Source of the DNA: a virus
Lineage: Duplodnaviria; Caudoviricetes
DNA length: 64,000 nt
Direction: 5' to 3' (one strand)
Virus record (IMG/VR): IMGVR_UViG_3300028048_000120
Coordinates: 19,744-83,743 of that record
In this document: positions 5,758 through 41,600 of the stretch, piece by piece
Layout of the letters: the number at the start of each line of letters is the position of its first letter
Numbering within the stretch: the first letter of the stretch is position 1
Translations under genes and position numbers: made by a program
The notes under the pieces: generated by a model
What the model saw: the letters and a program-made list of their open reading frames with translations, nothing else
Told to the model about the DNA's origin: nothing
Database searches by the model: none

Positions 5758-6315
5758 ATGACAGCAACAACGAATTTAAGTGCAGCGCTCAAGACAATAG
5801 ATGCTGCAGTAGAACATAACGAGACACCTTCAGACGGCTTATATGTAGAACTTCACAATGCTGATGGCAGTATAGCCTGCAAGAGCACCTTGACGGAGTT
5901 TCTGGCCAGTGCTGCAAAAGCTATATTATCTACCAATACGCTGTCTACAGCAACAAAGATAGCTGCTGTAGACGGAAATACATTCGGTGGAATAGACGGA
6001 AATAATCTCGCAACACTTATGGCGGGGAAATGGAAATACCTTTATTTAAATAAAGGTCAAACGTATTATCCATTAGAAAAAGGAATTTATGTATTGCATG
6101 AATTATCAAATGGAGAATATCATATATTTATTGCATCAGGATGGCTTTTTGGATCAAATAAGATATTTGGTTCTGGAGCATATATAAGATATAGTGAGCA
6201 AGATGACAACAATAACTATGGAATGGTCATCTTGCCAGGCACAAGTGAAGATAAACGATTAAGAATATCTGCACATATGAACACCCAATTGCAATTCAAA
6301 CTTTTGGCATTCTAG
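5758..6315 (+). CDS. Small putative receptor-binding protein with switchable C-terminus (expressed allele A)
   Basis: 185 aa directly after the tail fibre; residues up to MAGK are duplicated on the opposite strand at 6578-6756. Confidence 0.65.
   Translation: MTATTNLSAALKTIDAAVEHNETPSDGLYVELHNADGSIACKSTLTEFLASAAKAILSTNTLSTATKIAAVDGNTFGGIDGNNLATLMAGKWKYLYLNKGQTYYPLEKGIYVLHELSNGEYHIFIASGWLFGSNKIFGSGAYIRYSEQDDNNNYGMVILPGTSEDKRLRISAHMNTQLQFKLLAF
5853..6031 (+). repeat. Left arm of perfect 179-bp inverted repeat
   Basis: Base-by-base match to the reverse complement of 6578-6756 (tcacaatgctgatgg...atggcggggaaat). Confidence 0.97.
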
Positions 6316-6756
6316 ATGATTGATAATTGTCTACATAGAATTTCAGAATTTCTTTTGTTTTCTACATTAGCAACTCCTCTATTGATGGTAAGTGATATAT
6401 ACAACCCTTGGAGTTGCTCTTGTATGGAAGTACTAATTATAACATAAGAACTATAAAGTATTTCCACAATGGCATAATTTTGCCCCCCATCGAACAACAT
6501 CATCAGTAGCCCATACGTAGCGTTTGGTATTACAGCAGATTCTTTTCCCGGTATTCTTACGAATGTAGAAGGTTGTAATTTCCCCGCCATAAGTGTTGCG
6601 AGATTATTTCCGTCTATTCCACCGAATGTATTTCCGTCTACAGCAGCTATCTTTGTTGCTGTAGACAGCGTATTGGTAGATAATATAGCTTTTGCAGCAC
6701 TGGCCAGAAACTCCGTCAAGGTGCTCTTGCAGGCTATACTGCCATCAGCATTGTGA
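6312..6756 (-). other. Silent alternative C-terminal cassette (allele B) for the 5758 gene
   Basis: In-frame repeat (HNADG...LMAGK) followed by a different 88-aa C-terminus (LQPSTF...QLSII). It lacks the N-terminal 32 aa; the ORF caller start at 6770 is a TTG outside the repeat. Confidence 0.75.
6578..6756 (-). repeat. Right arm of perfect 179-bp inverted repeat
   Basis: Reverse complement is identical to 5853-6031. Confidence 0.97.
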
Positions 6757-6826
6757 GAAATAAGGGCCAATTATTAAAAATATTTAAAATTACCAATTAA
6801 AGAGAACAATTTACTGATATGTGATA

Positions 6827-6834
6827 TATATTTG
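6827..6834 (+). promoter_or_regulatory. Bacteroidota primary-sigma -7 element (TATATTTG)
   Basis: Matches TAnnTTTG just upstream of the 6846 gene; no clear -33 box. Confidence 0.55.
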
Positions 6835-6845
6835 CGTATATAATA

Positions 6846-7298
6846 ATGTGTAACTTAATAATCAAAAAATATTTTATAATGACAAGATTAAGAGATCATG
6901 AACCTACGCTCCTACAGAAAGAACGTATGAAACTGGAAACACGCTATCTTACTTTTTCGATTTCAATTTTTCACGCCATCTATGTACTCAACTTGGTATC
7001 TAACGGACTACCTCCAAGATGCCCCGATTTTGGTTCTATACTTGTGTATATGGCATTACTTCTCATCAACATACATTTATATGATGAGAGTAAGTGCTAT
7101 TACTATTGTTACTGGCATAGACACCCAATATTGTTCTCTATATATTATGAGATAACGAGGATATTATTCTCGCTTGGAATCATTAAATGGGATGTTGTAA
7201 CATGGAATAGTATAGACGTTATAATGTTAGCAGCAATATACGTAACATGGGTAGTTGGATATATGGCTCATAGCCACTTAATAATCAGGATAAGATGA
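6846..7298 (+). CDS. Multi-pass membrane protein (module gene 1); start may be 6879
   Basis: Several hydrophobic segments; C..HR motif (CYWHR) shared with 41208-41600 (CSYHR). Confidence 0.65.
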   Translation: MCNLIIKKYFIMTRLRDHEPTLLQKERMKLETRYLTFSISIFHAIYVLNLVSNGLPPRCPDFGSILVYMALLLINIHLYDESKCYYYCYWHRHPILFSIYYEITRILFSLGIIKWDVVTWNSIDVIMLAAIYVTWVVGYMAHSHLIIRIR

Positions 7299-7600
7299 GT
7301 AGGAAGAGCATAGTTGTGAAGATGTTGAGAACCCTTGCTGACAATATAGAGAATGGCGAACAAAGTAAATATAATTCAAATCTTACGGATGACGAGATAG
7401 ATATTCTACTGAATGATTATGCGAGAATGAATGACGAGAAATTAAACAAAGTACATGCGTGTAGGTTTTTGAACATGAGTCGTGCAACATTTGACAGACG
7501 TATAGCAGAGGGAAAGATACCGAGAGGTAAGAAAGAAGCAGGATGGAAGGAACTGTACTGGTCTAAGCGAGAACTTGAGCAACTTATTACTCACGATTAA
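7295..7600 (+). CDS. AlpA/excisionase-like HTH DNA-binding protein (module gene 2)
   Basis: ACRFLNMSRATFDRRIAEGKIPRG...WKELYW; clear homologue at 40854-41147. Confidence 0.75.
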   Translation: MSRKSIVVKMLRTLADNIENGEQSKYNSNLTDDEIDILLNDYARMNDEKLNKVHACRFLNMSRATFDRRIAEGKIPRGKKEAGWKELYWSKRELEQLITHD

Positions 7601-7662
7601 TTCTATAGATACCATATATTTCAACGGTTTGAGCATTGTTTCCGCTCGGGCCGTTTTTTATT

Positions 7663-7670
7663 TACTTTTG
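7663..7670 (+). promoter_or_regulatory. -7 element TACTTTTG
   Basis: TAnnTTTG about 45 nt upstream of ATG 7715. Confidence 0.5.
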
Positions 7671-7714
7671 GCATGTAACGTTACGACATGTTTAACCTTT
7701 TAAAAACCAAAAGT

Positions 7715-8368
7715 ATGGACGGAAACAACCTTTCTTATGCTGATTTTGCTGCCATGGCCAATAATGGTGCCAATGGTCAGTGGAATAATCCATTCATCTA
7801 CTTGTTGTGGATGATGTTCTTTGGTGGTGGTGGCTTCGGGTTCAGAGGTAACGGACCAGGCGTTGGACCTCAGGTGCAGAATCTGCAAGATCTTATCCAA
7901 GACAACCACAACAGTGATTTGACGATGCAGGCTATTAACGGCAACACCGCTGCAATAACCCAGCTAGCCAACCTTCTGAACACTAGCACGGATAACATCA
8001 CGGCAGCTATAAACGCTATGTCACAGAACATGCAGAATAATTGCTGCCAAGTGAAGAGTGCTATCTTGGAGCAGGGTTATCAAAATCAACTAGCGAACTG
8101 TCAGCAGACAAACACCATCTTGCAGCAGGCGCAAGCATTACAGAATTCTATCACTAACGGGTTCACACAGATAGGATTCCAGTTGGAGCGCAATGCATGT
8201 GATGTAAAGCAGACTTCTACAGAAAACACACAGAGAATTATTGACACCCTAAACAGCCACTGGACATCAGAGCAACAGGGTATTATCAACTCTCTGAACG
8301 CAAAGGTAGCGAGCATGGAGCAGACACAAGCTATTATCTCTGCGCTTAAGCCTGCAGCAACCACTTAA
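7715..8368 (+). CDS. Gly-rich/TM + Cys-Cys coiled-coil protein of unknown function (module gene 3); ORF caller start 7688
   Basis: FIYLLWMMFFGGGGFG hydrophobic segment, QAING, NNCCQ, LANCQQTN; homologous to 38946-39872. Confidence 0.75.
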   Translation: MDGNNLSYADFAAMANNGANGQWNNPFIYLLWMMFFGGGGFGFRGNGPGVGPQVQNLQDLIQDNHNSDLTMQAINGNTAAITQLANLLNTSTDNITAAINAMSQNMQNNCCQVKSAILEQGYQNQLANCQQTNTILQQAQALQNSITNGFTQIGFQLERNACDVKQTSTENTQRIIDTLNSHWTSEQQGIINSLNAKVASMEQTQAIISALKPAATT

Positions 8369-8441
8369 CAAGAGTATTTTATTTCCATCTCGATTGGCTG
8401 CACATAAGGAGTTATATCCAATATCATATGGATATTGATAC

Positions 8442-8449
8442 TATCTTTG
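8442..8449 (+). promoter_or_regulatory. -7 element TATCTTTG embedded in a long inverted repeat
   Basis: TAnnTTTG 36 nt upstream of ATG 8485. Confidence 0.5.
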
Positions 8450-8484
8450 TGCAGCCATGTAAGTATAATCAACATATAAGAACT

Positions 8485-8730
8485 ATGGCAAGTATAACGG
8501 ACACAATAGAGAAAATTATGATAGAGCATAAGGAGAACAACAATGATAAGTTACAGGAACAGTTGATGAGGCTTAAAGAGGAACTCCATGAGACCGTGCA
8601 ATGCCTTGACAACTGTCTTCAAGCTCTACGCCGAATACGCTTGCGCATTAAAGATAAAGGCTATGAAGAAGGAATGGAACGAGATAAGGGAGAGAATCCT
8701 GAAGGATCAGAGCGAAGAAGATTTGCGTAA
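8485..8730 (+). CDS. Small charged helical protein (module gene 4); ORF caller start 8428
   Basis: ATG 8485 lies downstream of the -7 box at 8442; weakly resembles 37847-38047. Confidence 0.5.
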   Translation: MASITDTIEKIMIEHKENNNDKLQEQLMRLKEELHETVQCLDNCLQALRRIRLRIKDKGYEEGMERDKGENPEGSERRRFA

Positions 8731-9151
8731 GATGCTGGGTGCCGTCATGGACGTCATGGAGGCACATTGGACGGAAGACAAGCAATTCGACTTCATGAAA
8801 AGAGTCCATTACAGAATGTATGGAGGACACTACGACGAATTCCTAGCCATGCAACAGGTAAGGCACATGTATTGGGAAGACGATAACAGTAACATTCATT
8901 ACGTTACTCCACTACCTCTAGAACAGGTAAGAACGATATACCAGCGAGTATACAATAGGTTGAAATATAAGACCTACAATATGTATGACTTCTATGTGGA
9001 ACTGCACAGAATCAAGTCTGACAGATATCCTAAGGCTACGGACATCACGGACGAGATGATTCAGGACACCATCGTATCGCTCAATGATCCTGACAACCCA
9101 TTTGGGCTGGAAAGAGTTTGGGGATATTTTAACTCTGAAATTAAGAAATAG
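8663..9151 (+). CDS. Conserved helical phage protein (module gene 5); ORF caller start 8588
   Basis: HYDEFLAMQQVRHMY / LEQV / YDFYVELHRIKSD / LNDPD pattern is collinear with 37378-37794. Confidence 0.7.
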   Translation: MKKEWNEIRERILKDQSEEDLRKMLGAVMDVMEAHWTEDKQFDFMKRVHYRMYGGHYDEFLAMQQVRHMYWEDDNSNIHYVTPLPLEQVRTIYQRVYNRLKYKTYNMYDFYVELHRIKSDRYPKATDITDEMIQDTIVSLNDPDNPFGLERVWGYFNSEIKK

Positions 9152-9153
9152 AT

Positions 9154-9627
9154 ATGAATGACATTAAGAGTCTCTTGGTATGGGGTGGAGGAGCATTACT
9201 TACAATGCTCTCACCCATTAAGGATTTTATGCTGGCCGTGATGATCCTTTTTATTTTAGATTTCACGTTCGGTGTAATAGCCGACAAGTTCAATGGCGAG
9301 AAATGGGAATGGGACAAAGCAAAGAACTTTTTCAAGAATGTGTTCTACTGCTGCGTTATCATCGTATCCCTGTTCGTGATAGGCTATTTCCTGCACGAGG
9401 CAGTTGCAGCGGAATATGCGGTTAAGACATTCTGCCTAGCTGCATTCGTCATTTTCTTTACGAAGATTGTCAAGAACTGGAGGAAATGCCTAGTACCGGG
9501 TACGGAATGGTATAAGCTAGCCGACTTCCTGTATTATCTATTGAGCTTCAGTATTGTAGACCGACTAAAGGTATACAAGGATTACCAGAAGTTCAAGGAA
9601 GATAACGGAAAGGAGGAAAAGAAATGA
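9154..9627 (+). CDS. Holin
   Basis: Three hydrophobic segments and a basic C-tail, immediately upstream of the endolysin. Confidence 0.75.
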   Translation: MNDIKSLLVWGGGALLTMLSPIKDFMLAVMILFILDFTFGVIADKFNGEKWEWDKAKNFFKNVFYCCVIIVSLFVIGYFLHEAVAAEYAVKTFCLAAFVIFFTKIVKNWRKCLVPGTEWYKLADFLYYLLSFSIVDRLKVYKDYQKFKEDNGKEEKK

Positions 9628-10055
9628 ACCCAAGCAAGACCCTTATAGATCACATAAAACAGGCGGAAGGTTTCAGTGAGAAAGCATACTGGGACCAAGA
9701 CGGAGGTGTGTGGACGATTGGATACGGGCATACTAGATCTGTGAAAAGAGGAGATGTAGTATCGAAGTCGGAAGCGGAGAGGCTCATCGTATCTGACTTA
9801 AAGAATGTAACAGCGTACCTCAGCACCATAAAAGAGATAAATACCCAAGGCAAGTTTGATGCCTGTGCAGATTTCTGTTTTAATATCGGCACGGGAGCCT
9901 TTAAATCATCTACACTACTGAAGTTGATAAAAACCGGTGCTCCTGACAAGGATATACAAGCACAATTCCGCAGATGGGTGTATTCAGGAGGAAAGAAGTT
10001 ACCAGGATTAGTAACAAGAAGAGGATGGGAGGCAAAGAGATGGGCAGAACGATGA
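9624..10055 (+). CDS. Endolysin, GH24 (T4/lambda-RrrD-like) lysozyme
   Basis: AEGFSEKAYWDQDGGVWTIGYGHT (E-D-T catalytic triad pattern), FCFNIGTGAF, GLVTRR. Confidence 0.92.
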   Translation: MNPSKTLIDHIKQAEGFSEKAYWDQDGGVWTIGYGHTRSVKRGDVVSKSEAERLIVSDLKNVTAYLSTIKEINTQGKFDACADFCFNIGTGAFKSSTLLKLIKTGAPDKDIQAQFRRWVYSGGKKLPGLVTRRGWEAKRWAER

Positions 10056-10519
10056 TTGCAATAATTGTAACTGTAATGTTGTGCGGTTGCAAGACCTACG
10101 TACCTGTTGAGAGAGTGCATAACACAACAGATACACTATATATAGAAAAGCACGACACATTGCGTGTTGAGGCTAAGCATACCGAAATGAGCGACAAAGT
10201 TGCCGAACGGGAACATATACGCAGAGACAGTGTATATATGGTAGTTGATGAGGCTGGAAATGTAAAGAAGACATACGAATACCACTATCTTGGAGACAAG
10301 CAACTGGAAAGACAAATCCTTGCGCTTAGAGATAGCGTGAATTACTATAAGATGCTGAGTGAATATCTTGCGGAGAAGAATACAGATCACCAGCAAGACC
10401 GAGTGGTGGAAAAGTTATCTATATGGAGTATGTTTAAGCCATGGATGCTTATTCCACTTTTAATTACATTTATAGCAGCAGTATACCTATTAATAAGGAA
10501 TTTCATAATACATAAATAG
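10040..10519 (+). CDS. Putative unimolecular spanin (lipoprotein + C-terminal TM)
   Basis: Signal with lipobox-like VMLCGC, periplasmic helical part, C-terminal hydrophobic helix WMLIPLLITFIAAVYLLI; third gene of the lysis cassette. Confidence 0.7.
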   Translation: MGRTMIAIIVTVMLCGCKTYVPVERVHNTTDTLYIEKHDTLRVEAKHTEMSDKVAEREHIRRDSVYMVVDEAGNVKKTYEYHYLGDKQLERQILALRDSVNYYKMLSEYLAEKNTDHQQDRVVEKLSIWSMFKPWMLIPLLITFIAAVYLLIRNFIIHK

Positions 10520-10528
10520 GTTTCTTTT

Positions 10529-10557
10529 CCGGCTGTCACCGTTATTGGGGCAGCCGG
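10529..10557. terminator. Bidirectional intrinsic terminator between lysis cassette and repressor
   Basis: ccggctgtc...ggcagccgg stem followed by a T-rich run, between convergent genes. Confidence 0.75.
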
Positions 10558-10564
10558 TTTTCTT

Positions 10565-10924
10565 TTACTTTTTGGCCCTACTTGTCAAAATGTCTATAAG
10601 ATTATCTACCTGTTGTTCCTTCTTTTTATAATTCTCTTGTAGCTCTTCTAGCTTATGCTGCAACACCTGAACAACGCTTTCATCACTGCACTCGTCAGCA
10701 TCGATAAACATACTTCCTTCTCCACGCATGAGCCATTCGGCTGACAAATCAGGATATGAGGATAAAAGAGCCTCTATAAATTCATAAGATGGATTTCTTA
10801 TACCACGCATGTAGTTATTGACGGAGTTCTGAGGCAATCCAATTTTATGAGCAAGAGAAGTTTGTGAAATGTCTAATGCATGTAAAAACGCTGTAAGTCG
10901 CTGATGTACACTACTTTCCTTCAT
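10565..10924 (-). CDS. XRE/cI-like phage repressor
   Basis: ISQTSLAHKIGLPQNSVNNYMRGIRNPS HTH; SAEWLMRGEGSMF; divergent from cro-like gene. Confidence 0.85.
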   Translation of the reverse strand: MKESSVHQRLTAFLHALDISQTSLAHKIGLPQNSVNNYMRGIRNPSYEFIEALLSSYPDLSAEWLMRGEGSMFIDADECSDESVVQVLQHKLEELQENYKKKEQQVDNLIDILTSRAKK

Positions 10925-10981
10925 TTTGTTATTAATATTGTGTCTAAATAATCACGTTTGTAGAAAATAATCCCAAAATTG

Positions 10982-11013
10982 TTTGGAAGTTACTCAAAAT
11001 GTGATTATCTTTG
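10982..11013 (+). promoter_or_regulatory. Rightward (lytic) promoter: TTTG-N20-TATCTTTG
   Basis: Full Bacteroidota consensus with -33 at 10982-10985 and -7 at 11006-11013. Confidence 0.75.
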
Positions 11014-11055
11014 CACTGTGATTGATTAATTAATATTGCCTAATGTTGTTGGGCA

Positions 11056-11063
11056 CAAAGATA
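11056..11063 (-). promoter_or_regulatory. Leftward -7 element TATCTTTG (candidate repressor promoter)
   Basis: Plus-strand caaagata; points toward cI and faces the rightward promoter. Confidence 0.5.
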
Positions 11064-11089
11064 ATAAAATTTTTTAAAACAAGCAGAAG

Positions 11090-11290
11090 ATGAACGCAAA
11101 AAATGTAAACAACAAATCTCTAACACAGACAATAAGAGATCTGGAGCTTGGACAGAAGATATTCTACCCATTAGAGAGATTCAACAGTGTTCGCAGCATC
11201 TGCTGCACAATAGCATATACTTTGCGAAAGAAGTATAAAACTTCTGTAGACAGGGAGAACGGAACAATCTCTGTAACAAGAATTAAATAG
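11090..11290 (+). CDS. Cro-like small DNA-binding protein
   Basis: 66 aa, basic, first gene divergent from cI. Confidence 0.5.
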   Translation: MNAKNVNNKSLTQTIRDLELGQKIFYPLERFNSVRSICCTIAYTLRKKYKTSVDRENGTISVTRIK

Positions 11291-11296
11291 AATGCC

Positions 11297-11608
11297 ATGA
11301 CACAGCCACAGCAATTATATGTCCTAACGGGCGAACAATTGAACACATTTGTTACGGAATTAGCCGATAAGGTTACTGAACAAGTTGTAAGAAAACTTCG
11401 CCCACAGTACATGACAAGAAAAGAAGTAGCAGCCAAGCTACATGTAGTTCAATCTACAATTATCAACTGGGTGGATGCTGGTTTGATTCAAGAATACCGT
11501 ATTGCCGGTAAGGTATTGTATGATCCGGTAGAGGTGGAATCGCAGATTCGCTCAGGCAAGGTAAAAACTAAGCCAAAGAAACTGGCTGGTAAAACATTTA
11601 TAATTTGA
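11297..11608 (+). CDS. Excisionase-like HTH protein
   Basis: YMTRKEVAAKLHVVQSTIINWVDAGLIQEYRIAGKVLY (HTH_17/MerR-like pattern). Confidence 0.75.
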   Translation: MTQPQQLYVLTGEQLNTFVTELADKVTEQVVRKLRPQYMTRKEVAAKLHVVQSTIINWVDAGLIQEYRIAGKVLYDPVEVESQIRSGKVKTKPKKLAGKTFII

Positions 11609-11829
11609 AGAAGATGAAAAATATCAAGAACATATTGAAGGTAATGGCGCTAGGCGCTTTCCTTCTTGCGACATTAGGTATCATCGGTAACGATGAGCAC
11701 TATGAACAAGTGGCTTACTCTATGGGGTATGAAAAATATCAAGAGATATCTAATCAATTGAAATCTGAGAATGGCAAGATACCTACAAGAGAACAAGTAG
11801 TGGATAGGTATCTTAAGATGAATAGATAG
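11605..11829 (+). CDS. Hypothetical protein with N-terminal TM/signal (ATG probably 11614)
   Basis: Basic N-terminus plus hydrophobic stretch. Confidence 0.55.
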   Translation: MKKMKNIKNILKVMALGAFLLATLGIIGNDEHYEQVAYSMGYEKYQEISNQLKSENGKIPTREQVVDRYLKMNR

Positions 11830-12069
11830 TTAAACTTCTAAATATTACCAATTACAAGTTATATATGTTTATGGCAAGTTAGTATGTCTGTGAAGACAAA
11901 AATCTTAGAGAGTGATATTTTTGTATGATCCACTAAGGGCACAGCGGTGCCCAATTCGCCGAATGGGCACAAGGCGCCCTGATGCAAAGGTTGTCGTGAG
12001 ACAAATTTTCTATTCGCTAATTTTTCATGATATGATTTTAATTTTGCTAACTGTTGGTTTAGGTGTTAA

Positions 12070-12077
12070 TAATTTTG
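12070..12077 (+). promoter_or_regulatory. -7 element TAATTTTG (a second copy at 12039-12046)
   Basis: Tandem TAnnTTTG boxes upstream of the replication gene. Confidence 0.45.
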
Positions 12078-12304
12078 CATCAACTGGTTCGATCCCGAAT
12101 TCGGCACTAAAATAAATTAATAAAATATAAGACTAAGACAATGAAGTTTGGAAATCAAGAAAAAGAGCTAGTGTTAACAATATCTAGTTTGTACGCATCA
12201 CTCTATCAGATATGCGGTACAGATTCTACAACAGAGTTTGAATCTAAAGTTAGATCAATTCATCTGCTAAGCCTTAAATTGAATAGACTAAGGAGGAATT
12301 CTAT

Positions 12305-12943
12305 ATGAAAGGTTGGATAATTATACCAAGAGACATTCTTGATGAGAAGGTCTTCAAGAAGTCGAACGTATTCAATGTATTCATCAATTTGCTCATGAGA
12401 GCATCATGGTCAGATCATGAATATAATGGCGTGCAACTTAAAGAAGGTCAAGTAGTTACGACGCTAAATCAGATAGCAGAATGGTGCAATTTGAGTATGC
12501 AAAACGTGAGGACTGTGTTACTAACATTGAAACTAACAAACCTTTTAACCAAGGAGTCAACCCACCAAAACACAACTATAACTATCTGTAATTATGGAAG
12601 TTACAAACTTGGGGATTTGGAAACCGAACAACCTTCTAACAAACGAGCTAACAATGTTACTAACAAACATAAAAAAGAAAAGATTAATAAAGAAGAGATT
12701 ATAAAAAAGAAAATAAATAAAAGAAAAAAAGACGAAGATTCGATAACGAAACTCATAGAGCGAGAACATAATCGAGTTCTGAACAAGAGTAAAAAAGTCG
12801 AATCTGAAGTCAACAGGATAGAAGATATGATTAAGTTCGTAGAAGCAAATCCTGACTCAACGGCAGCAGGAGCGTTGAGGAATCTGAAGGCTAGCGGTAG
12901 ACTTAAGGAGCTAGGCATTAATTGGTCTGATCAAAAAAATTAA
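12305..12943 (+). CDS. Phage replication initiator / replisome organiser
   Basis: KGWIIIPR...FINLLMRA...LKEGQVVTT winged-helix N-terminus plus low-complexity basic linker. Confidence 0.7.
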   Translation: MKGWIIIPRDILDEKVFKKSNVFNVFINLLMRASWSDHEYNGVQLKEGQVVTTLNQIAEWCNLSMQNVRTVLLTLKLTNLLTKESTHQNTTITICNYGSYKLGDLETEQPSNKRANNVTNKHKKEKINKEEIIKKKINKRKKDEDSITKLIEREHNRVLNKSKKVESEVNRIEDMIKFVEANPDSTAAGALRNLKASGRLKELGINWSDQKN

Positions 12944-12968
12944 GTTAAACCAGGTAAAACAACGAATC

Positions 12969-13586
12969 ATGATATACGAAAACTTAAATAAACGCTCTGT
13001 AAGCGACCAAAACGATAGTAGTCGAGTAACTATAGCCGAGCTGAGAGAAATCCTCTCAGACGGAAAGAAAAGCGGCTCAAACAGAAAAGTACAACACGAG
13101 AGAGACCTACAGATACAATGTGTATCATGGTTCAGGATGAAATATCCCGCCTTTTCAATGTTGCTTTTCCATCCTGCTAATGAGACCTCGGAAGGAGTGA
13201 AGAAACTCCGGATGAGAGCAGCAGAGGGAGTTGTTGCAGGAGTATGTGATCTGATTCTCGCTATTCCATCGTCATGGCCTGTAGGAACAGACAGATACGA
13301 CAAATACGGCAAGGAGATCATTGATATGCTTGAATACAGATCTCTTGGTATTGAAATGAAATTCGGCAAGACCAACAATCAGTCGGCAAAGCAGAAGCTG
13401 TTTGAGCAGTATTACCAGGCAGCCGGAAACAGATACTGCGTATGTCGCAATTTTGACGACTTCAAGAATGCTGTTGACGAGTGGATGACGCACGTACCTA
13501 ACGGCATCAAGGCTGCGATAAAGTCAATATACAGCGCACCTGATGATTACAACAAACAATTGCTCATGCGCATAGCTAAAAAATAG
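12969..13586 (+). CDS. VRR-NUC domain nuclease
   Basis: ERDLQIQCVSWFR...FHPANE...GVVAGVCDLIL...IEMKFG...QSAKQK (PD-(D/E)xK). Confidence 0.85.
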   Translation: MIYENLNKRSVSDQNDSSRVTIAELREILSDGKKSGSNRKVQHERDLQIQCVSWFRMKYPAFSMLLFHPANETSEGVKKLRMRAAEGVVAGVCDLILAIPSSWPVGTDRYDKYGKEIIDMLEYRSLGIEMKFGKTNNQSAKQKLFEQYYQAAGNRYCVCRNFDDFKNAVDEWMTHVPNGIKAAIKSIYSAPDDYNKQLLMRIAKK

Positions 13587-13591
13587 ATACC

Positions 13592-13777
13592 ATGGATAAA
13601 TTTGAAAAATTTTCTTTAAGCATCATCGCCAGCCTGACTTTGTCTGTGTTGGGCATCGGAATGGCGATAGACAATTGCGATTTACGCTTCAATATTGGGT
13701 TTATGATCGGCATGATAATAGGCATCCCCAGTTTTATTTGGTTCATCGTGACGTGGAATTCTGGAAAGGAGGACTGA
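13592..13777 (+). CDS. Small two-TM hypothetical protein
   Basis: Two hydrophobic helices; operon context. Confidence 0.5.
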   Translation: MDKFEKFSLSIIASLTLSVLGIGMAIDNCDLRFNIGFMIGMIIGIPSFIWFIVTWNSGKED

Positions 13778-13780
13778 GAT

Positions 13781-14323
13781 ATGGATGCAAATGAATTCAA
13801 AAAGACGGTGTACGACATGAGATGCTACGAGAGAGCATATTTTCGTGGCAGAAACGTGAAAGCACTGAATGCCGTGAATAGATTCAGGAAGTATCTGTCG
13901 GAAGAGATTGAGCGCATAAGGAAAGTTATTCCTGCGGATAAGGAAATCACGGATAATCCCGATTATGATTTTTTCTGTGTTGTGGAAGAAATGTTGAGGC
14001 TCACAGGAAAGTATCTCTCAATGAAGAAACATGGCGGATATGACGGCATATCGATGAATGCCGTCATAAAAGATCTATCGAAAAAAGAGAAGGCCGTTGA
14101 CGGAATACTGGAGAGATGGAATAAGCAAAAGCAAAAGGAAACAGGCAAAGTGACGAAGTACAAGGTTGTGATGTCTGGAATACTTGGTACCGGATGTGTG
14201 TATGAGAGCTTCGACAGATCACTTGTAATCTCAGAATACTACTCACGTCAGCAATTTGCCGTAGATGGTACCCACTTCAATATGGCTAGCGAAGAGATCC
14301 CCCTTGAAGATCTCAAAAAATAG
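13781..14323 (+). CDS. Hypothetical protein
   Basis: 180-aa ORF in operon. Confidence 0.6.
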   Translation: MDANEFKKTVYDMRCYERAYFRGRNVKALNAVNRFRKYLSEEIERIRKVIPADKEITDNPDYDFFCVVEEMLRLTGKYLSMKKHGGYDGISMNAVIKDLSKKEKAVDGILERWNKQKQKETGKVTKYKVVMSGILGTGCVYESFDRSLVISEYYSRQQFAVDGTHFNMASEEIPLEDLKK

Positions 14324-14480
14324 CAATTATTTTCTAACCCAGATGACGACCCACCGTGGCAACGTGCAGTGAGACTCTGCAGGATTTTCTATTATTGTGT
14401 GGCGGGAATCGTAAAAATAGTGTGAGAAAGAGGTTATCAACTTCCCGTCACGCTTTAATGGAAAAACGTAAATAAAAATC

Positions 14481-15023
14481 ATGAAAAAATGGAAGATAGC
14501 AATACATAGAATGTTGTTCCCGAATCTGCATAAGAGAAGGGTTCTCTTCATGGATCTTGACGATACGCTGATAGTGACAATAAGTGGGAAAACATTTCCC
14601 GTAGATGAATATGACTGGGAATTTAAGCCTGGCATATTGGATTCCATAGTTAATTACAGACCTACATGGATACACATTGTGACTAATCAAGGAGGTATCG
14701 CAGCTGGATATATAGACGAAGAAAAGTTTTTGCAAAAGATGGGCAATATTTTGTTTCAGCTTAAGAAAGACACTTGGACAGAAGATTCTTTTGAAATGTG
14801 TACCTCTCTTGACAGGACTGACAAATTCAGAAAGCCCAATCCTGGCATGGTCAACAGATTTATTACGATACACAACCTGGCAAGTGATGAATGTCTTATG
14901 GTAGGAGATGCAAGCGGAAAGTTTGGAGACTTCTCGGATAGCGACAAGGAATGCGCCAGGAGAGCAGGAATAAAATATATGGACGTAGATGATTTTATAG
15001 AGAAATATGGGAAGAAAAATTAA
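14481..15023 (+). CDS. HAD-IIIA phosphatase (PNKP 3'-phosphatase/GmhB-like)
   Basis: FMDLDDTL (DxD), IVTNQGG, RKPNPGM, MVGD...SDSD motifs. Confidence 0.85.
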   Translation: MKKWKIAIHRMLFPNLHKRRVLFMDLDDTLIVTISGKTFPVDEYDWEFKPGILDSIVNYRPTWIHIVTNQGGIAAGYIDEEKFLQKMGNILFQLKKDTWTEDSFEMCTSLDRTDKFRKPNPGMVNRFITIHNLASDECLMVGDASGKFGDFSDSDKECARRAGIKYMDVDDFIEKYGKKN

Positions 15024-15741
15024 GTTAACGGGAGAACAGGCAAAAGAGCTTATATCAGAAGCAGCAAAGAGTTATGACAAGATTCTTGCATCAATGTACT
15101 CGATAGTATGCGTAATAAATGATGTTGCTAACTGTCTGATGGTAGACACATATGCAGAGCTTAAGAAGAGTAAGTACTATAAGCAGAGTGTGAAGAAAAA
15201 CGCAAATCTTGCCATGAATACATACAACATGTGGTGTAAAAAGAGAATCGAAGAACTCGATGATAGAGCGTGTCTATGGATGGATCTTGCCAATGCCGTA
15301 GCGGATGGTGTAAGCCCACATATCGATAGATGGAGATATGCGATGGAACTTTGTCTCCAACGTCACAAGGTAGAAGATGCTCACTTGAAGGCGATGATCA
15401 TGGTAACCTCAAGCATGCTCGAATATGCGTCTGTCTTCTATGATAGATTTATTGATGGTATGAAAAATGGAGCATTCCAGGTAAAGTTCATTAAGAAGGA
15501 GTTCCGAGAATTCAAAATAGATAATGTCTATAAGGCATGGAAAAAGGTAAAAAATGCTATCTGCATACAACCTGAAGACGATGAAATAGACCTCAACAAG
15601 GACGAGATGGTATGCTTAGGATATGATGTTGTTGATCGATATCTAACAGATGCGGATAACTTTAATATGGCAGCCGAAACGGCGATTAGTTATAACAAAG
15701 AAATTGCAGAAAAATATGAGAAGAGACATAAATATGAATAG
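15007..15741 (+). CDS. Hypothetical protein
   Basis: 244-aa helical ORF overlapping the upstream gene. Confidence 0.6.
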   Translation: MGRKIKLTGEQAKELISEAAKSYDKILASMYSIVCVINDVANCLMVDTYAELKKSKYYKQSVKKNANLAMNTYNMWCKKRIEELDDRACLWMDLANAVADGVSPHIDRWRYAMELCLQRHKVEDAHLKAMIMVTSSMLEYASVFYDRFIDGMKNGAFQVKFIKKEFREFKIDNVYKAWKKVKNAICIQPEDDEIDLNKDEMVCLGYDVVDRYLTDADNFNMAAETAISYNKEIAEKYEKRHKYE

Positions 15742-15766
15742 AGATATTTGATGGAGTAGTAAAAAG

Positions 15767-16075
15767 ATGGATAGAATTACCAGAATGAAGATGGAAAAAT
15801 ATTTTATAGACACAGAGAGCAGTAGTATAGCTACAGATATGCAGAAGGAGTTCAGAGAGGCAGTGATGAAGAGATATAATCACATTGTGACAGATAACAT
15901 CGATGCCGTATGGGATGGTGTAAAAAAGATATCTCATGAACTGAAAGAAAAATATAATACTTTGTCGGTCATTCAGACTGACGATCACATATTTTGGATG
16001 AATTGTCATATGGACAGCTTTTCGATGAGACTTATAGCGAAACAAATTAAAAGAGCAGAAAATGAAGAAATATGA
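15767..16075 (+). CDS. Hypothetical protein
   Basis: 102-aa ORF in operon. Confidence 0.5.
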   Translation: MDRITRMKMEKYFIDTESSSIATDMQKEFREAVMKRYNHIVTDNIDAVWDGVKKISHELKEKYNTLSVIQTDDHIFWMNCHMDSFSMRLIAKQIKRAENEEI

Positions 16076-16394
16076 ATTTGACAAGAACGGGGAATGTTTG
16101 AATCCTGATATTATATCATCCGAGCTACAGCAGGAAGATGGAAGTAGAGTTACATGGGAAATAGAAGTTGCTGAGGCTCCTAATGGATGGGTAGCAGGAA
16201 TGAAGTGGAGGAATAAGGGAGAATTTGATGTTTGGAGATATCCATGCTCTCTGAAAAATGATAAATATCCATCTCGCCGTAAGGCTGTGATAGTGGCAGC
16301 AAGGAAACTCCTTAAAATAAAATATCTCCCTGATCATGAATGGCTAAAGAAATTAATATTCAAAGAGAAACAATTGAATCTGTTCGATGACTGA
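16062..16394 (+). CDS. Hypothetical protein
   Basis: 110-aa ORF ending in QLNLFDD. Confidence 0.55.
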   Translation: MKKYEFDKNGECLNPDIISSELQQEDGSRVTWEIEVAEAPNGWVAGMKWRNKGEFDVWRYPCSLKNDKYPSRRKAVIVAARKLLKIKYLPDHEWLKKLIFKEKQLNLFDD

Positions 16395-16521
16395 CCGGAA
16401 GAAGCACATAGAATGTAGATATTCCGTGAATTGTATTAACGGATTATATTGTAGGAGGCTTAGCAAATATATTGAATATGGTGATATAGATTGTGCTGAG
16501 GCTGATAAAGAGAAAAAGTAA
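16387..16521 (+). CDS. Small Cys-rich protein (not in ORF track)
   Basis: 44-aa ORF MTDRKKHIECRYSVNCINGLYCRR... with four Cys; overlaps the upstream stop. Confidence 0.4.
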   Translation: MTDRKKHIECRYSVNCINGLYCRRLSKYIEYGDIDCAEADKEKK

Positions 16522-16684
16522 AATAATATTAAAGAGAATCGAATATGGAATATTTTATTTTAGGTGCTTTGCTGCTCCTTGATTTGGTCAGCATAGTTCT
16601 ATTAATTAAGAGTATGTTTAACGGTTTTAACTATTAAAAAAGAAAATTGCAGAACTATATAAGGGAAGAAAGGAGGGAAAGGAA

Positions 16685-17089: not shown

Positions 17090-17112
17090 CTAAGAACTGA
17101 ATTGTTATAACT

Positions 17113-17406: not shown

Positions 17407-17408
17407 CT

Positions 17409-17986: not shown

Positions 17987-18112
17987 TTATGGAAGACCCA
18001 AATAAATATGTAGGCTCTGTCTTTGTATGGGAAGAGCAGAAAGTAAAAGAAATAATGCAAGATATTGTTAATTTTACAAAGCAAAGTGATAATAATATAA
18101 ACTGGAATAAAT

Positions 18113-36968: not shown

Positions 36969-37002
36969 AAAAGGAGGGTTGAAAAATCCTCCTTTTATTT
37001 TT
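36969..37002. terminator. Bidirectional terminator after RNAP
   Basis: aaaaggagg...cctcctttt stem with A/T runs, between convergent genes. Confidence 0.75.
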
Positions 37003-37381
37003 TAATATTCTTAAATATAGAATACATTCTACTTACTATATACCCTATAGTATAAGCTGCATTTTCTCCTATATCATCTACTGAATATGCTCTAAGTAAA
37101 GCTTGTTTTACATGTTCTGCTTCATGTACTATAGAATTGATATAATCTATATCATTACTATGATTACCAAATAATACTATACTTACTCTCTCTTCAATGC
37201 TGTTACAAGTTGCAGCTTTAACCTTTCCACTTTTTATTTTATTGAAAATATCATCTATAGATTCTTTTGAAAAATTTAGTAAACGTAATTCAAAATAAAT
37301 ATCATCAAAGAAGCTATAATCTATATTATAATAAACTATAATTTTCCAATATTTTTCTATTTTGAACATCTGTTTAATCAT
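36995..37381 (-). CDS. Small zincin-like metallopeptidase (HExxH)
   Basis: SIVHEAEHV...ENAAYTIGY; ATG 37381 overlaps the upstream stop (ORF caller start 37396). Confidence 0.65.
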   Translation of the reverse strand: MIKQMFKIEKYWKIIVYYNIDYSFFDDIYFELRLLNFSKESIDDIFNKIKSGKVKAATCNSIEERVSIVLFGNHSNDIDYINSIVHEAEHVKQALLRAYSVDDIGENAAYTIGYIVSRMYSIFKNIKK

Positions 37382-37794
37382 AGCATTTCTTCCCAATCTA
37401 TAGGATTATTCATAAATATAGTATCAGCATAGAATCTATTAAATATAAATCCTTCAGTAGCATCAGGGTCATCTATTAAATCTTTTATATACATAGCCAA
37501 GTATTTATCTGAGGGTAAGGACTTACCTAAGAAATCAGCTTTAGCCATATTAGCTACATATACATAATCATATAGTTTATTTCTATCTAAAACTATATTA
37601 TTATTACGTAATAGTGAATCAACCTGTTCTTTAGTATATGGTACTATGTACTTTTTTATACCATTTTCCATAGTATACATTCTACTAGCAGCTTCTTCAC
37701 AAAGCTTCCTATTAAAATGACAACCATAGTTATTTATATAACTCTTCATTCCTAATGGAATTTCATCATAACTTCCTGTATTCTTTTGATACAT
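37378..37794 (-). CDS. Conserved helical phage protein (module gene 5 homologue)
   Basis: HFNRKLCEEAASRMY / TKEQV / YDYVYVANMAKAD / IDDPD, collinear with 8663-9151. Confidence 0.75.
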   Translation of the reverse strand: MYQKNTGSYDEIPLGMKSYINNYGCHFNRKLCEEAASRMYTMENGIKKYIVPYTKEQVDSLLRNNNIVLDRNKLYDYVYVANMAKADFLGKSLPSDKYLAMYIKDLIDDPDATEGFIFNRFYADTIFMNNPIDWEEML

Positions 37795-37807
37795 AATATT
37801 AATATTT

Positions 37808-37846: not shown

Positions 37847-38047
37847 TTACCTTCTTCTAGTATATCGGTAGTCATATCTACCTTCTTTCATATCATCATA
37901 ATTCCTATGATAATCATCTCTATACTCAACATCATCCATAGCATCTTCTAGACACTCTTCAAGATCTTCTGCAAATTCTTTCATCTTTTTAATCTTTTCA
38001 AGCATCTCTTTGTGCTCTCCACTACTTCTAAATCTTACTATTTTCAT
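37847..38047 (-). CDS. Small charged protein (module gene 4-like)
   Basis: Acidic helix plus Arg/Tyr/Asp-rich tail. Confidence 0.6.
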   Translation of the reverse strand: MKIVRFRSSGEHKEMLEKIKKMKEFAEDLEECLEDAMDDVEYRDDYHRNYDDMKEGRYDYRYTRRR

Positions 38048-38051: not shown

Positions 38052-38540
38052 TTAAATTGTTTTATTATTACTTTTTAAAAGAGCTAAAGCTTCCTTTAAT
38101 TGAGCTTGCATACTCTCAACTTGCCCTTTTAATTCCTTTACTGCATTATTATCTACCATGCTGGGATTTAATTGCTCTAAAACTTTTTTATATTGCTCAA
38201 TAAGAATTTCATGTTTATCTTTAGAGTTTACTATATCAATACTTTTTTGAAGTTGTCCATTAATATAATTTACTAAAGATTCCTTATTATCAGCAATAAC
38301 AAAAGTATCAGGACCAAAATCAGCTATAGTGTTATTACTAGGTACTTGCTTAAATTCTCTCTTCTCTCCATTTATTACAGCTATTATATCTATAACTGTT
38401 TCTGGAATTTGACCAAAAGTATTCTGCATATACCTAGATCTAGGTAAGGATATTGAGTCTATAGGTGCAGTGAAAAACTTAATATCACCTTTAGTATCTA
38501 GACCATATAATACACTTCCTTTACTTAAATTTGAAAACAT
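38052..38540 (-). CDS. Hypothetical protein with C-terminal coiled coil
   Basis: 162 aa; module B context. Confidence 0.7.
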   Translation of the reverse strand: MFSNLSKGSVLYGLDTKGDIKFFTAPIDSISLPRSRYMQNTFGQIPETVIDIIAVINGEKREFKQVPSNNTIADFGPDTFVIADNKESLVNYINGQLQKSIDIVNSKDKHEILIEQYKKVLEQLNPSMVDNNAVKELKGQVESMQAQLKEALALLKSNNKTI

Positions 38541-38577: not shown

Positions 38578-38931
38578 TTATGCTGTAGTAGGATTAAGCA
38601 ACTGAAGAATGTTACTATTCTTATCATAATAAATAAGATAGATTCCAGTTCCTGACATTTCTGAAGCAGTAGCTGCTATTCCACCAACCACAGTAAGAGG
38701 TTGAGTAAAATCACTAGATTCAAACAAAATAGGTAAGGTACCAGCAGTACTAGGAATTTCGGTATTTAGTCTAAATATCATTATACCATTAGTACTTAGA
38801 AATCTAAATGCCCTTCTAGGAATACCTATTACTACATTTTCAGTAGTAACATTTACACAGGTACTCTCAATCATAGGTATACCATTCCTATTGGCAAAGT
38901 TAAAAGGATAATTAGTAGTTGCTCCAAACAT
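38578..38931 (-). CDS. Hypothetical beta-rich protein
   Basis: 117 aa; GIYLIYYDK C-terminal motif. Confidence 0.65.
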   Translation of the reverse strand: MFGATTNYPFNFANRNGIPMIESTCVNVTTENVVIGIPRRAFRFLSTNGIMIFRLNTEIPSTAGTLPILFESSDFTQPLTVVGGIAATASEMSGTGIYLIYYDKNSNILQLLNPTTA

Positions 38932-38945: not shown

Positions 38946-39872
38946 TTAGTTAAAGAAATTGGTTTGAGGATAACTATACCCTAAATAAGGAGTAGCATTT
39001 GCAGCTATAATATTAGGGTACTGTACAGGTACTGTGTTAGGCTGTCTTGCAGCAATGCTATTGATTTTTTCATTTAGAGATTCAAAAGCCTTATTGAAAG
39101 CTTCTGTCTGTTTATCATTACTAATCTGACCTCTAAGCTGAGTAATAATGTCACCTTGAGTATTTATTTTATTCTGTAATTCCCTCTCTTTAAGGTCACA
39201 GAACTCTTTAGTTATAAGGGTATTCTGACCAGCAATAGCATTGAGAATACTATTAGTATTTCTATCAGCCTGAGAACCTAATTGATTAGTCTGTTGACAT
39301 ACAGCTAGTTTATCAGCAGCTTCTGCCTGAGAAGTTTGTAGTGTACTAGCAGCAAAATTAGATGCCATCTGACTCTGTAATGCATTAGTCTGATTACATA
39401 TAGCCAATCTATTTTCACAACAACACTGAGCTATTTGAGAACCCAGAGAAGCATTACCAGCTTGTACAGCATTAATAGTCTGAAGACCTGACATGCCTAC
39501 TTGATTACCTACCTGATTAATAGAGTTCTGTAAAGTCATGATACCATTCTTCACTGCTTCTACAGAGGTATTGGTAATAGATGCCAATTGAGCAGCAGCA
39601 TCAGCCCTACCATTAATAGCTTGCAATAGTAAATCCCTACCCTCAGAGTTTGAAATCTGATTAGCTAAATAGCCAGTGCCATTATTGCCTCCAAAGCCGT
39701 TATTACCCCAGCCATTGTTACCCCAAATCATCCAAAGGAAAATAATCCATATCCAATTACCATTACCACCAAAACCCCCGTTATTGTTAAGGGCAAGTAA
39801 TAAGTTAGGATCAATGCCAGTAGCTTTAGATACTGCATCAGGGAAAACATAAACACTTTCATCTTGTGCCAT
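38946..39872 (-). CDS. Gly-rich/TM + CCC coiled-coil protein (module gene 3 homologue)
   Basis: WIWIIFLWMIWGNNGWG, QAING, QCCCENRLAICNQTN, VCQQTN. Confidence 0.8.
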   Translation of the reverse strand: MAQDESVYVFPDAVSKATGIDPNLLLALNNNGGFGGNGNWIWIIFLWMIWGNNGWGNNGFGGNNGTGYLANQISNSEGRDLLLQAINGRADAAAQLASITNTSVEAVKNGIMTLQNSINQVGNQVGMSGLQTINAVQAGNASLGSQIAQCCCENRLAICNQTNALQSQMASNFAASTLQTSQAEAADKLAVCQQTNQLGSQADRNTNSILNAIAGQNTLITKEFCDLKERELQNKINTQGDIITQLRGQISNDKQTEAFNKAFESLNEKINSIAARQPNTVPVQYPNIIAANATPYLGYSYPQTNFFN

Positions 39873-40071: not shown

Positions 40072-40851
40072 TTAGTAATCCATTTCAATATCAATATTAT
40101 AAGTACCAGCAGAATAAGTATTTAAAGATTCTAGTACTGTATAATCACCTACAACTGTTCTGTTTATAGGTATTTCATAACCATTCATGTCTACTCTTTG
40201 GAAATGACTCATTACAGAGTTAGGAATAACTACATATATATGTTCATCATTTCCCACAACTACATCAAAATTAGACCTTGTAACTTTATAAAATTCTTTT
40301 CTATGCTCTTCATTAATAACATCTGTGTATGCAATACCTGCTCCTATATAAAAAGGTACCTTAACAACACATTGTAATTCCCTAATAATAGTTCTACCCA
40401 TCAATACAGCTTCTGCTTTAATAGTAACAGTACTATCAGTAGTTATTGTTGTAGTAGCAGTTCTAATATTTCCACCAATATATTTAAGTTCATCATTTAC
40501 ATAAAACTTAATACTTGTAAAAGGTTCAAAAGCATTAATACAACTTGCAGTACATATACATCTTACATTTCCGTCAGCAATAACAAATGAAGGATCTATA
40601 GTAAATGTATAATCCATGTACCCTTTACCTGTAATATATGACAAATCATCAGCTATAGTATATATTATATCAATTAGTTCTTGATTTAATTTAGGAAGAG
40701 TTATTGATTTATCCTGTATATGTTCTGTAGTAATTGAGTTATCTGCTATGTGTTCTGAATGTATAGCATGCTCTTTTATTTTAAATTTGAATGCTTTATT
40801 TGGAGTCTTATTTAATTCAGACTTTCCTATTTCTTTATTTGTACCCGTCAT
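40072..40851 (-). CDS. Tail-fibre/decoration-like protein
   Basis: HIADNSITTEHIQDKSIT repeats followed by beta-rich domains. Confidence 0.5.
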   Translation of the reverse strand: MTGTNKEIGKSELNKTPNKAFKFKIKEHAIHSEHIADNSITTEHIQDKSITLPKLNQELIDIIYTIADDLSYITGKGYMDYTFTIDPSFVIADGNVRCICTASCINAFEPFTSIKFYVNDELKYIGGNIRTATTTITTDSTVTIKAEAVLMGRTIIRELQCVVKVPFYIGAGIAYTDVINEEHRKEFYKVTRSNFDVVVGNDEHIYVVIPNSVMSHFQRVDMNGYEIPINRTVVGDYTVLESLNTYSAGTYNIDIEMDY

Positions 40852-40853: not shown

Positions 40854-41147
40854 TTATTTCTTTTTAGTAGTTATATAATTAGATAGCTCATCTTTATACC
40901 AAACAAGTTCTTTGAATCCTACTCTTTTCCTTCCTTTAGGTAATTTATTTAGATTAATCATACTATCAAATTTACTTCTTGACATATTGAGATAATTACA
41001 GGCTGTCTCTTTACTCATAACATGATGGGTAAGCAGTGACATTATATCCATTGCTTCAGATTCTGATAACTCAGAGTTTCCTGAATCTAATTTATTAGCA
41101 ATTTCTCTTAATAATTTAGCTACTAATTTAATCAATGATGTCTTCAT
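40854..41147 (-). CDS. AlpA-like HTH protein (module gene 2 homologue)
   Basis: ACNYLNMSRSKFDSMINLNKLPKG...FKELVW. Confidence 0.75.
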   Translation of the reverse strand: MKTSLIKLVAKLLREIANKLDSGNSELSESEAMDIMSLLTHHVMSKETACNYLNMSRSKFDSMINLNKLPKGRKRVGFKELVWYKDELSNYITTKKK

Positions 41148-41207: not shown

Positions 41208-41600
41208 TTATTTGTTTATTCTTAATATGTTTTTATACTTGTTACTCCTATATAATATAAGAAATATAAATAGTCCTGTTATTATCAAGTAAAACATTAA
41301 AAGTTTTTTATCTGATAAAGGTATTCCAATATAATAATCATATATATTAAGTATCCAGTTAAGAGATACATAATGTAGAAATAATCTATGATAACTACAA
41401 AATTTAAAAGCATAACTAGATATATACAAGAACATCATAGGCAATAAAGAAACTCCTCCTAAATAAGAGAGTATAAAAGTATCTACATTTAAGTAGGAAA
41501 GTAATATGTTTAACAGCACAATGAGGGATAATACCATTGGAATTACTTTAAGTACCCAGAGTTGTATTTTATGAATATTTCTTATAGGTAGTGTTTCCAT
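41208..41600 (-). CDS. Multi-pass membrane protein (module gene 1 homologue)
   Basis: About four TM segments; FKFCSYHR motif. Confidence 0.7.
   Translation of the reverse strand: METLPIRNIHKIQLWVLKVIPMVLSLIVLLNILLSYLNVDTFILSYLGGVSLLPMMFLYISSYAFKFCSYHRLFLHYVSLNWILNIYDYYIGIPLSDKKLLMFYLIITGLFIFLILYRSNKYKNILRINK

Follow-up and report, generated by a model that had tools for sequence, protein, structure and literature searches.

Do two unrelated phages carry versions of the same gene cassette, and, if so, what would that cassette do for them? The question is raised by a 64,000-nt stretch (the window) of the IMG/VR record IMGVR_UViG_3300028048_000120, in which two distinct gut phages each carry a set of small genes built around a Gly-rich, cysteine-containing protein (copy A, 6846-9151, + strand; copy B, 36995-41600, − strand). 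A prediction made from the sequence alone had described both copies as one mobile, self-regulated five-gene module, i.e., a membrane protein, a helix-turn-helix (HTH) protein, the Gly-rich protein, a small charged protein, and a helical protein in fixed order, for which superinfection exclusion, lysis timing, or envelope remodelling was offered as a function. As detailed below, the two copies would be versions of one widespread late cassette of phages infecting Bacteroidales, the composition of which differs from that originally proposed.

Homologous genes of the two copies

All open reading frames (ORFs) of the original prediction are present, and the sequence motifs that it quoted are real, being seen in the alignments of the HTH family and of DUF7841, the family of the helical protein. 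The claim of a common gene order holds for the HTH, Gly-rich, and DUF7841 genes, which are homologous, collinear, and in the same orientation in A and B, but fails for the membrane-protein and small charged pairs. The HTH proteins, a 101-amino-acid (aa) excisionase/AlpA-like DNA-binding protein in copy A (7295..7600, +) and a 97-aa protein in copy B (40854..41147, −), share 39% identity over 95 aa in a blastp comparison (E 2e-19). Their respective HTH_17 scores of 19.3 and 14.9 bits lie below the family cut-off of 27; seven of nine aligned relatives match HTH_17 (best E 3.8e-7), and by such profile matches the cassette HTH protein belongs near this family. The Gly-rich proteins of copy A (226 aa; 7688..8368, +) and copy B (308 aa with a CCC cluster; 38946..39872, −) are 25% identical over 207 aa (E 5e-7), and both match phrog_16490 (E 3e-6 over residues 21-216 and E 5.1e-33 over residues 17-295, respectively). 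For the helical pair, blastp identity is 26% over 98 aa (E 0.01), with both members exceeding the PF25223 (DUF7841) cut-off of 25.2 bits, at 37.2 bits for the 187-aa ORF of copy A (8588..9151, +) and 97.2 bits for the 138-aa protein of copy B (37378..37794, −); the copy A ORF has an N-terminal helical extension, and its true start may be the Met at 8663. Judged on these alignments, chance would not account for three homologous genes that agree in order and orientation.

The membrane proteins, each with ~4 hydrophobic helices, gave no blastp match between copy A (150 aa; 6846..7298, +) and copy B (130 aa; 41208..41600, −), their likeness being confined to a C-x-(Y/W)-H-R motif after the second transmembrane (TM) helix (Trp in A, Tyr in B) and to the same gene position (hhalign E 0.02). 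The copy A protein, the stop codon of which overlaps the HTH start by 4 nt, has no PHROG or Pfam family match and no relatives in IMG/VR. That of copy B belongs to a family common to the crAss-like loci L003, L067, and L070; hhalign also relates this family (E 3.9e-5) to another group of membrane proteins, which escort the HTH protein in non-crAss phages.

The small charged pair is not significantly similar by blastp (E 0.47). The copy A member, a 100-aa entry in the ORF list (8428..8730, +) that overlaps the DUF7841 ORF by 143 nt, is doubtful as a real gene because it is uncalled by the gene caller in a 97%-identical contig (L132) and shows no synonymous changes relative to that contig; the possibility that it is a truncated x162 (a 162-aa protein of copy B) was rejected at 4-6 bits. 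Across the same comparison, synonymous and non-synonymous changes number 7:2 in the HTH gene, 10:0 in the Gly-rich gene, 23:9 in the DUF7841 gene, and 0:2 in the charged ORF; the first three genes are under purifying selection. The copy B peptide (66 aa with a D/Y/R-rich tail; 37847..38047, −) is gene-called in locus L131, and related loci have a ~300-nt gap at its position with room for such an ORF. In locus L061, the DUF7841 protein (7106-7735) itself has a C-terminal R/G/Y/D-rich tail like that of the copy B peptide, which suggests that the two can be fused or split. The five-gene definition is therefore wrong as such, given that the charged ORF of copy A is doubtful and that copy B has nine genes, the four extra ones encoding a fibre-like 259-aa protein, the 117-aa protein x117, x162, and a HExxH protein. 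Nor did the internal TAnnTTTG promoters withstand scrutiny: the window contains 94 occurrences of the motif, where 82.5 ± 8.4 are expected, i.e., a chance-level count, so we reject it as promoter evidence. A sigma-70 scan returned fewer sites than in shuffled sequence.

The record itself is most likely an assembly chimera joined at ~18.0 kb, because contigs end and start there and phage A is found by itself elsewhere. Two contigs of ENA sample ERZ27252073 meet at this point: one of 11.5 kb reproduces window 6616-18077 without a difference and goes no further, and a crAss-like one of 93.7 kb begins at window 17952, overlapping the phage A contig by 126 nt; one JGI contig likewise terminates at 18060. 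Phage A occurs alone on a 34-kb contig from a different sample, with an SU10-type capsid gene and a contig end just past its u-spanin gene. Either 17952-18077 is a short identical stretch common to both phages, or the record was mis-joined. GC content falls from ~0.41 to ~0.31 across the window. None of this harms the finding, since the finding concerns two phages in any case.

The recurring unit across related loci

Conserved synteny, for which a profile and neighbourhood survey had been proposed as a check, was examined with iterated hidden Markov models for each gene in loci anchored on the Gly-rich gene (80 from IMG/VR and 42 from genomes or metagenome-assembled genomes) and in 80 loci anchored on the HTH gene, making ~200 related loci overall. 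The order Gly-rich, x162, DUF7841 recurs among the Gly-rich-anchored loci from both sources, its full form being Gly-rich, (x117), x162, (small), DUF7841, (HExxH), where brackets mark optional genes. The real unit is the Gly-rich protein, x162, and DUF7841, joined optionally by a β-rich protein (x117), a small charged peptide, and a putative HExxH peptidase. Among 86 loci, x162 follows the Gly-rich gene in 79 and is its most constant neighbour, so copy A represents a reduced version from which x162 was lost. DUF7841 is found in 69/86; x117 (24/86) and the HExxH protein occur in ~25 loci each, within one lineage group that includes crAss-like members.

The pair of membrane-protein and HTH genes is seen in fewer loci. 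Most Gly-rich-anchored loci have no detectable membrane-protein or HTH gene (13 of 116); where the pair is present, the Gly-rich gene follows it directly, on the same strand. The order membrane protein, HTH, Gly-rich, x162, DUF7841, holin, endolysin, u-spanin was found in L048, L117, L118, and L115, the last of which is a prophage at ~3.10-3.12 Mb of the complete chromosome of Segatella copri G8, NZ_CP146523.1; its gene order matches that of copy A with x162 added. Of the 80 HTH-anchored loci, 24 have the Gly-rich gene downstream and 30 a different, 261-aa TM protein; in many others, the pair stands alone or with DUF7841 only. In the 261-aa protein, a canonical TM helix with the N terminus inside is combined with a Gly-rich stretch, helices, and a tail rich in Cys; its gene is followed by those for coiled-coil proteins and DUF7841. 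In other Crassvirales (L210, 6843-7628, and 29 further loci), it holds the slot after the membrane protein/HTH pair and before DUF7841 and the homologues of gp31 and the major capsid protein (MCP); some loci have a truncated remnant, such as that of L208, which retains only the first 60 residues. Homology of this positional analogue to the Gly-rich protein is unsupported (hhalign E 0.035, probability 1.5%).

The Gly-rich family spans crAss-like phages, a phage with an SU10-type capsid, a siphovirus with a tape measure gene, 150-175 kb phages, and the S. copri prophage, in agreement with the proposal of a mobile module common to unrelated Bacteroidota phages. In public metagenomes, it comprises at least 1,643 clusters at 50% identity and more than 7,900 at 90%; among the 150 best listed clusters, all members are 130-370 aa long and none is named. 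ORF-based family counts underestimate presence, as gene calls become fragmented in phages that read TAG as sense in the cassette and lysis genes; these include L004 (cr7_1), L012, L031, L062, L064, L065, L101, L112, L116, L124, and L127. A nucleotide search of copy A against GenBank phages gave no match, and nothing specific was found in the literature on DUF7841, Bacteroides phage C3_41T2LP, crAss spanins, or crAss spike-like coiled coils.

Members of the Gly-rich family share an acidic N-terminal region, an aromatic/Gly-rich hydrophobic segment, a long Q/N/A-rich helical region, and conserved cysteines including CC or CCC. The hydrophobic segment has a median start at residue 46 and a median Kyte-Doolittle value of 0.32 over 19 residues, with an occasional Arg; in copy A, it covers residues ~32-50 and precedes a Q/N-rich helical region with a CC cluster. 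For x162, the AlphaFold2 model (predicted local distance difference test [pLDDT] score 87) consists of a small barrel and a helical hairpin, its best PDB match being EF-P domain I (Z 6.5, root-mean-square deviation 1.8 Å over 59 residues). Barrels like EF-P domain I are a common fold, and neither the x162 nor the DUF7841 model had a functional match in Foldseek or VIA-align searches, BFVD returning only uncharacterised crAss proteins. The DUF7841 model (pLDDT 91) gave no PDB match (Foldseek E ≥ 0.29; VIA Z ≤ 3.8); its alignment displays conserved HF(N/D), YD..N..AD, and DDPD motifs, and no DUF7841 fusion was detected when long proteins were searched for one.

That no described system fits, as had been suspected, is borne out by the searches. 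PADLOC gave best E-values of 0.004-0.02 confined to HTH or coiled-coil stretches, and NCBIfam nothing; sequence-profile searches of the PDB with the Gly-rich, x162, DUF7841, and HTH families yielded marginal coiled-coil or HTH matches only, and ESM Atlas searches with the Gly-rich protein and x117 only unnamed viral clusters. Apart from a repeat match of the 259-aa protein to phrog_892, the window cassette proteins match no structural PHROG or Pfam family.

Late translation, dispensability, and proposed function

A member of a holin, endolysin, or u-spanin family lies within ~5 kb in 83 of 116 loci, and, with the Gly-rich proteins clustered at 60% identity, in 8 of the 17 lineages with enough flanking sequence; whether the cassette precedes or follows the lysis genes varies with the lineage. 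At least 10 TAG-recoded phages carry in-frame TAGs in the Gly-rich (2-8), x162 (3-9), and DUF7841 (1-5) genes, and likewise in x117, the HExxH gene, one HTH gene, and the neighbouring holin and endolysin genes. In a survey of recoded phages, in-frame TAG recoding was found to mark late structural and lysis genes (bioRxiv 10.1101/2021.08.26.457843); the in-frame TAGs that the cassette shares with the lysis genes thus point to its late translation. In cr116_1 (Steigviridae, Asinivirinae), the cassette is situated between the endolysin and the gp31/MCP homologues, at which point crAss001, of the same subfamily, has a 235-nt gap, with no cassette gene in the 100 kb scanned. Recoding and this presence or absence in close relatives together mark the cassette as late, accessory, and mobile.

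We tentatively favour, with somewhat less than even confidence, a late accessory role at the envelope, dispensable and tied to lysis, as the explanation of the cassette. This accounts best for the data because the cassette crosses morphotypes within one host order, is translated late, is dispensable, adjoins lysis genes on either side, and has a probably membrane-active core; its exchange among unrelated morphotypes of one host order resembles the behaviour of lysis or envelope-interaction genes and not that of core virion parts. Purifying selection on the cassette genes and the canonical N-in TM helix of the 261-aa positional analogue in other Crassvirales also speak for this explanation. The core would be the Gly-rich, Cys-cluster helical protein, possibly in complex with two soluble partners, x162 (which copy A has lost) and DUF7841, and would probably be controlled by the translationally coupled membrane protein/HTH_17 pair that is often found ahead of it. 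The Gly-rich protein may insert into or lie on the cytoplasmic membrane via its aromatic/Gly-rich segment and oligomerise via its long helical region. The target of the cassette would then be the host envelope as infection closes, where it would be accessory to the holin-endolysin-spanin programme and influence when or how efficiently lysis occurs, or the state in which the envelope is left. Of the functions offered earlier, lysis timing and envelope remodelling fit the context best, and exclusion by a product made early or from a lysogen fits worst, as cassette genes carry recoded TAG codons like those of the lysis genes. The parts of membrane sensor, regulator, and membrane-anchored polymer that the original prediction gave to the proteins are putative.

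Known lysis cassettes (holin-endolysin-spanin; T4 holin T with RI/RIII; P2 LysA) resemble the present one in being late and in combining small membrane-associated with small soluble proteins beside lysis genes, and its dispensability is akin to that of T4 rI/rIII. They differ in that no relation of sequence or fold connects them (with limits of E ≤ 0.1 or 0.01, neither Pfam nor PHROG places any cassette protein in the T, RI, or RIII families), and in that our cassette has an HTH protein and sometimes a putative metallopeptidase, and is not always beside lysis genes. Spanins (lambda Rz/Rz1; T1 gp11) share with the Gly-rich protein a hydrophobic segment near the N terminus, a long, predicted helical domain, conserved cysteines, and a lysis-gene neighbourhood; however, the Gly-rich protein has no adjacent lipoprotein partner, its segment begins at ~residue 45, and the same phages already have a u-spanin-like gene. 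No lipobox or signal peptide was found in the Gly-rich protein, x117, or x162, the gene with a lipobox and C-terminal TM segment beside the endolysin being a separate one.

Several points weigh against a lysis-linked envelope function. The Gly-rich segment is short and aromatic, has no clear positive-inside bias, and is not a classical TM helix, which makes membrane insertion less certain. No cassette component is homologous to known lysis proteins; phage A is already equipped with genes for a holin, an endolysin, and a u-spanin-like protein; and recognisable lysis genes are missing beside copy B, beside the cassettes of 150-175 kb phages, and beside that of phage C3_41T2LP, where the cassette comes after recombination genes. 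Adjacency to lysis genes could also reflect a shared position at the end of the late operon, and the 122 Gly-rich-anchored loci are dominated by a few clades.

Late translation alongside structural genes would also suit accessory virion proteins, with the Gly-rich protein as a trimeric coiled-coil fibre, a needle, or an ejected membrane-inserting protein, x117, x162, and DUF7841 as adaptors or chaperones, and the HExxH protein as a maturation or PolyVal-type peptidase delivered with the DNA. In Crassvirales, the cassette does lie inside the structural operon, with the endolysin on one side and the gp31/MCP homologues on the other, giant polyvalent-type genes adjoin the cassette in L009, L013, and L019, and copy B is itself flanked by a 3,672-aa virion RNA polymerase/polyvalent gene and a 2,194-aa gene; moreover, GenBank labels some homologues "outer capsid protein/viral fiber", and the helical region is weakly like heptad repeat 1 (HR1) of coronavirus S2 (E 0.003). 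Trimeric fibres and needles such as P22 gp26 and T4 fibritin would resemble the Gly-rich protein in length (230-340 aa), in the long helical rod predicted for it, and in being expressed late; no homology to them was detected. Yet a cassette spanning podovirus-like, siphovirus-like, and very large phages would be rare for core virion parts, crAss001 makes complete virions without it, an HTH protein with a polytopic membrane protein would be unusual in a virion module, and there is no structural PHROG or Pfam match; the lack of DUF7841 fusions in long proteins adds weak evidence in the same direction. On balance, we regard a virion role as rather unlikely; what favours it is the genomic setting in crAss structural operons and next to giant polyvalent genes.

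A superinfection-exclusion or counter-defence module at the membrane, mobile and merely parked by the lysis genes, seems to us improbable: although the cassette is dispensable, patchy among close relatives, and very widespread within one host order, with a small HTH regulator and membrane protein of its own and, in copy B, its own bounding terminators, it matches no PADLOC defence model, nothing points to a nucleic-acid or NAD-type effector, and in-frame TAGs in recoded phages bar production early or from a lysogen lacking the suppressor tRNA. Similarly poor prospects attach to the notion that there is no single system, i.e., that the membrane protein/HTH pair is a general late regulator unit and the Gly-rich, x162, and DUF7841 genes an unrelated set that often lands downstream of it. 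The HTH-anchored counts given above, with the Gly-rich gene in 24/80, the 261-aa protein in 30, and neither in many, lend themselves to this reading, as does the failure to detect the membrane-protein or HTH gene in most Gly-rich-anchored loci; however, wherever the HTH gene occurs, the Gly-rich gene or its positional analogue comes right after it on the same strand, DUF7841 accompanies both the Gly-rich and 261-aa versions, and the counts may omit many HTH proteins, since small proteins of this kind diverge quickly.

A more specific form of envelope action is suggested by the weak matches of the Gly-rich profile to the fusion peptide-HR1 region of coronavirus S2 (many spike entries, E 0.003-0.04). 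Like class I fusion proteins, the Gly-rich protein has a Gly/aromatic hydrophobic peptide, a long Q/N/A/L-rich heptad helix, and a Cys cluster, and some GenBank homologues are labelled "spike protein/glycoprotein"; unlike them, it shows no C-terminal hydrophobic anchor in the family alignment and comes with no receptor-binding subunit or enveloped virion, and the E-values are marginal. The likeness probably reflects similar design or composition, not homology. It is a speculative and unlikely idea that the Gly-rich protein is a fusion-protein-like, membrane-active protein (fusion-peptide-like segment, heptad helix, Cys cluster) that, with the orphan folds x162 and DUF7841, forms a new late envelope-remodelling or membrane-fusion machine specific to Bacteroidales phages; such a machine would differ from both holins and spanins, and the cassette's own membrane protein/HTH pair would turn it on.

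The Gly-rich family is very large and extends over crAss-like and several unrelated lineages of gut Bacteroidales phages, yet has no member with a known function or fold. To our knowledge, lysis in Bacteroidales phages has received little experimental study so far; were the cassette to govern how or when these phages open the host envelope, a gap would be filled and differences between close crAss relatives explained. Experimentally tractable carriers exist in the cultured Bacteroides uniformis phage C3_41T2LP and the prophage of the complete S. copri G8 genome. What the window newly contributes is the reduced copy A, the linkage of membrane protein and HTH genes, the TAG recoding, the insertion or deletion distinguishing crAss001 from cr116_1, two orphan-fold models, the S. 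copri G8 prophage, and the probably chimeric nature of the record.

Remaining genes and flanks of the two copies

Strong terminator-like hairpins at 41616-41644, 40024-40050, and 36969-36996 split copy B into two units. The first lies just upstream of the membrane-protein gene, and the second follows the gene for the 259-aa protein (40072..40851, −), which is specific to copy B; over 35 residues, this protein matches phrog_892 (tail fiber, E 2.2e-6) through a repeat motif known from the N-terminal part of tail fibres. Also found in copy B only are x117 (38578..38931, −; β-rich; phrog_31654, E 3.7e-14) and x162 (38052..38540, −; phrog_28898, E 1e-17), the barrel of which is EF-P/KOW-like. The last gene, again without a copy A counterpart, encodes the 133-aa HExxH protein (36995..37396, −), with an HEAEH motif and a match to phrog_1365, of unknown function (E 9.2e-7), and is followed by the third hairpin, a bidirectional terminator. 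This protein is like a PolyVal-type zincin in having HExxH within ~130 aa, and its homologue in Bacteroides phage C3_41T2LP is annotated in GenBank as a PolyVal metallopeptidase; it differs in that it has no Pfam match at E ≤ 0.1, and any activity is putative.

On either side of copy B lie the 3,672-aa gene (25938-36956), for which an identical ENA gene has recorded ART-PolyVal and DUF7831 matches, and the 2,194-aa gene (42095-48679), which has an HEAFH motif. The equivalent convergent junction of crAss001 holds just the 63-aa gp48.

Downstream of copy A, all on the + strand, are genes for a four-helix, holin-like protein (9154-9627; Phage_holin_4_1, E 0.0014, below the cut-off), a GH24-type endolysin (9624-10055; phrog_7, E 2.8e-46), and a u-spanin-like protein (ORF 9974-10519) in which a lipobox (LCGC) and a C-terminal TM segment can be read from the sequence; the last overlaps the endolysin gene and likely starts near 10040. 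Proteins with this u-spanin layout occur in the lysis cassettes of many such Bacteroidales phages, crAss-like ones included (e.g., L070, 5397-5783; L003, 3166-3573; L039, 6936-7388; and the window ORF just given), and crAss001 gp27 ("lysis regulatory protein") weakly matches their profile (E 0.021). Upstream of copy A, at window 5758-6770, a 185-aa ORF (+) and a 152-aa ORF (−) share an identical ~57-aa segment as an inverted repeat; the start of the phage A contig in ENA (window 6616) falls inside the right repeat, as expected if both orientations coexist in the population.

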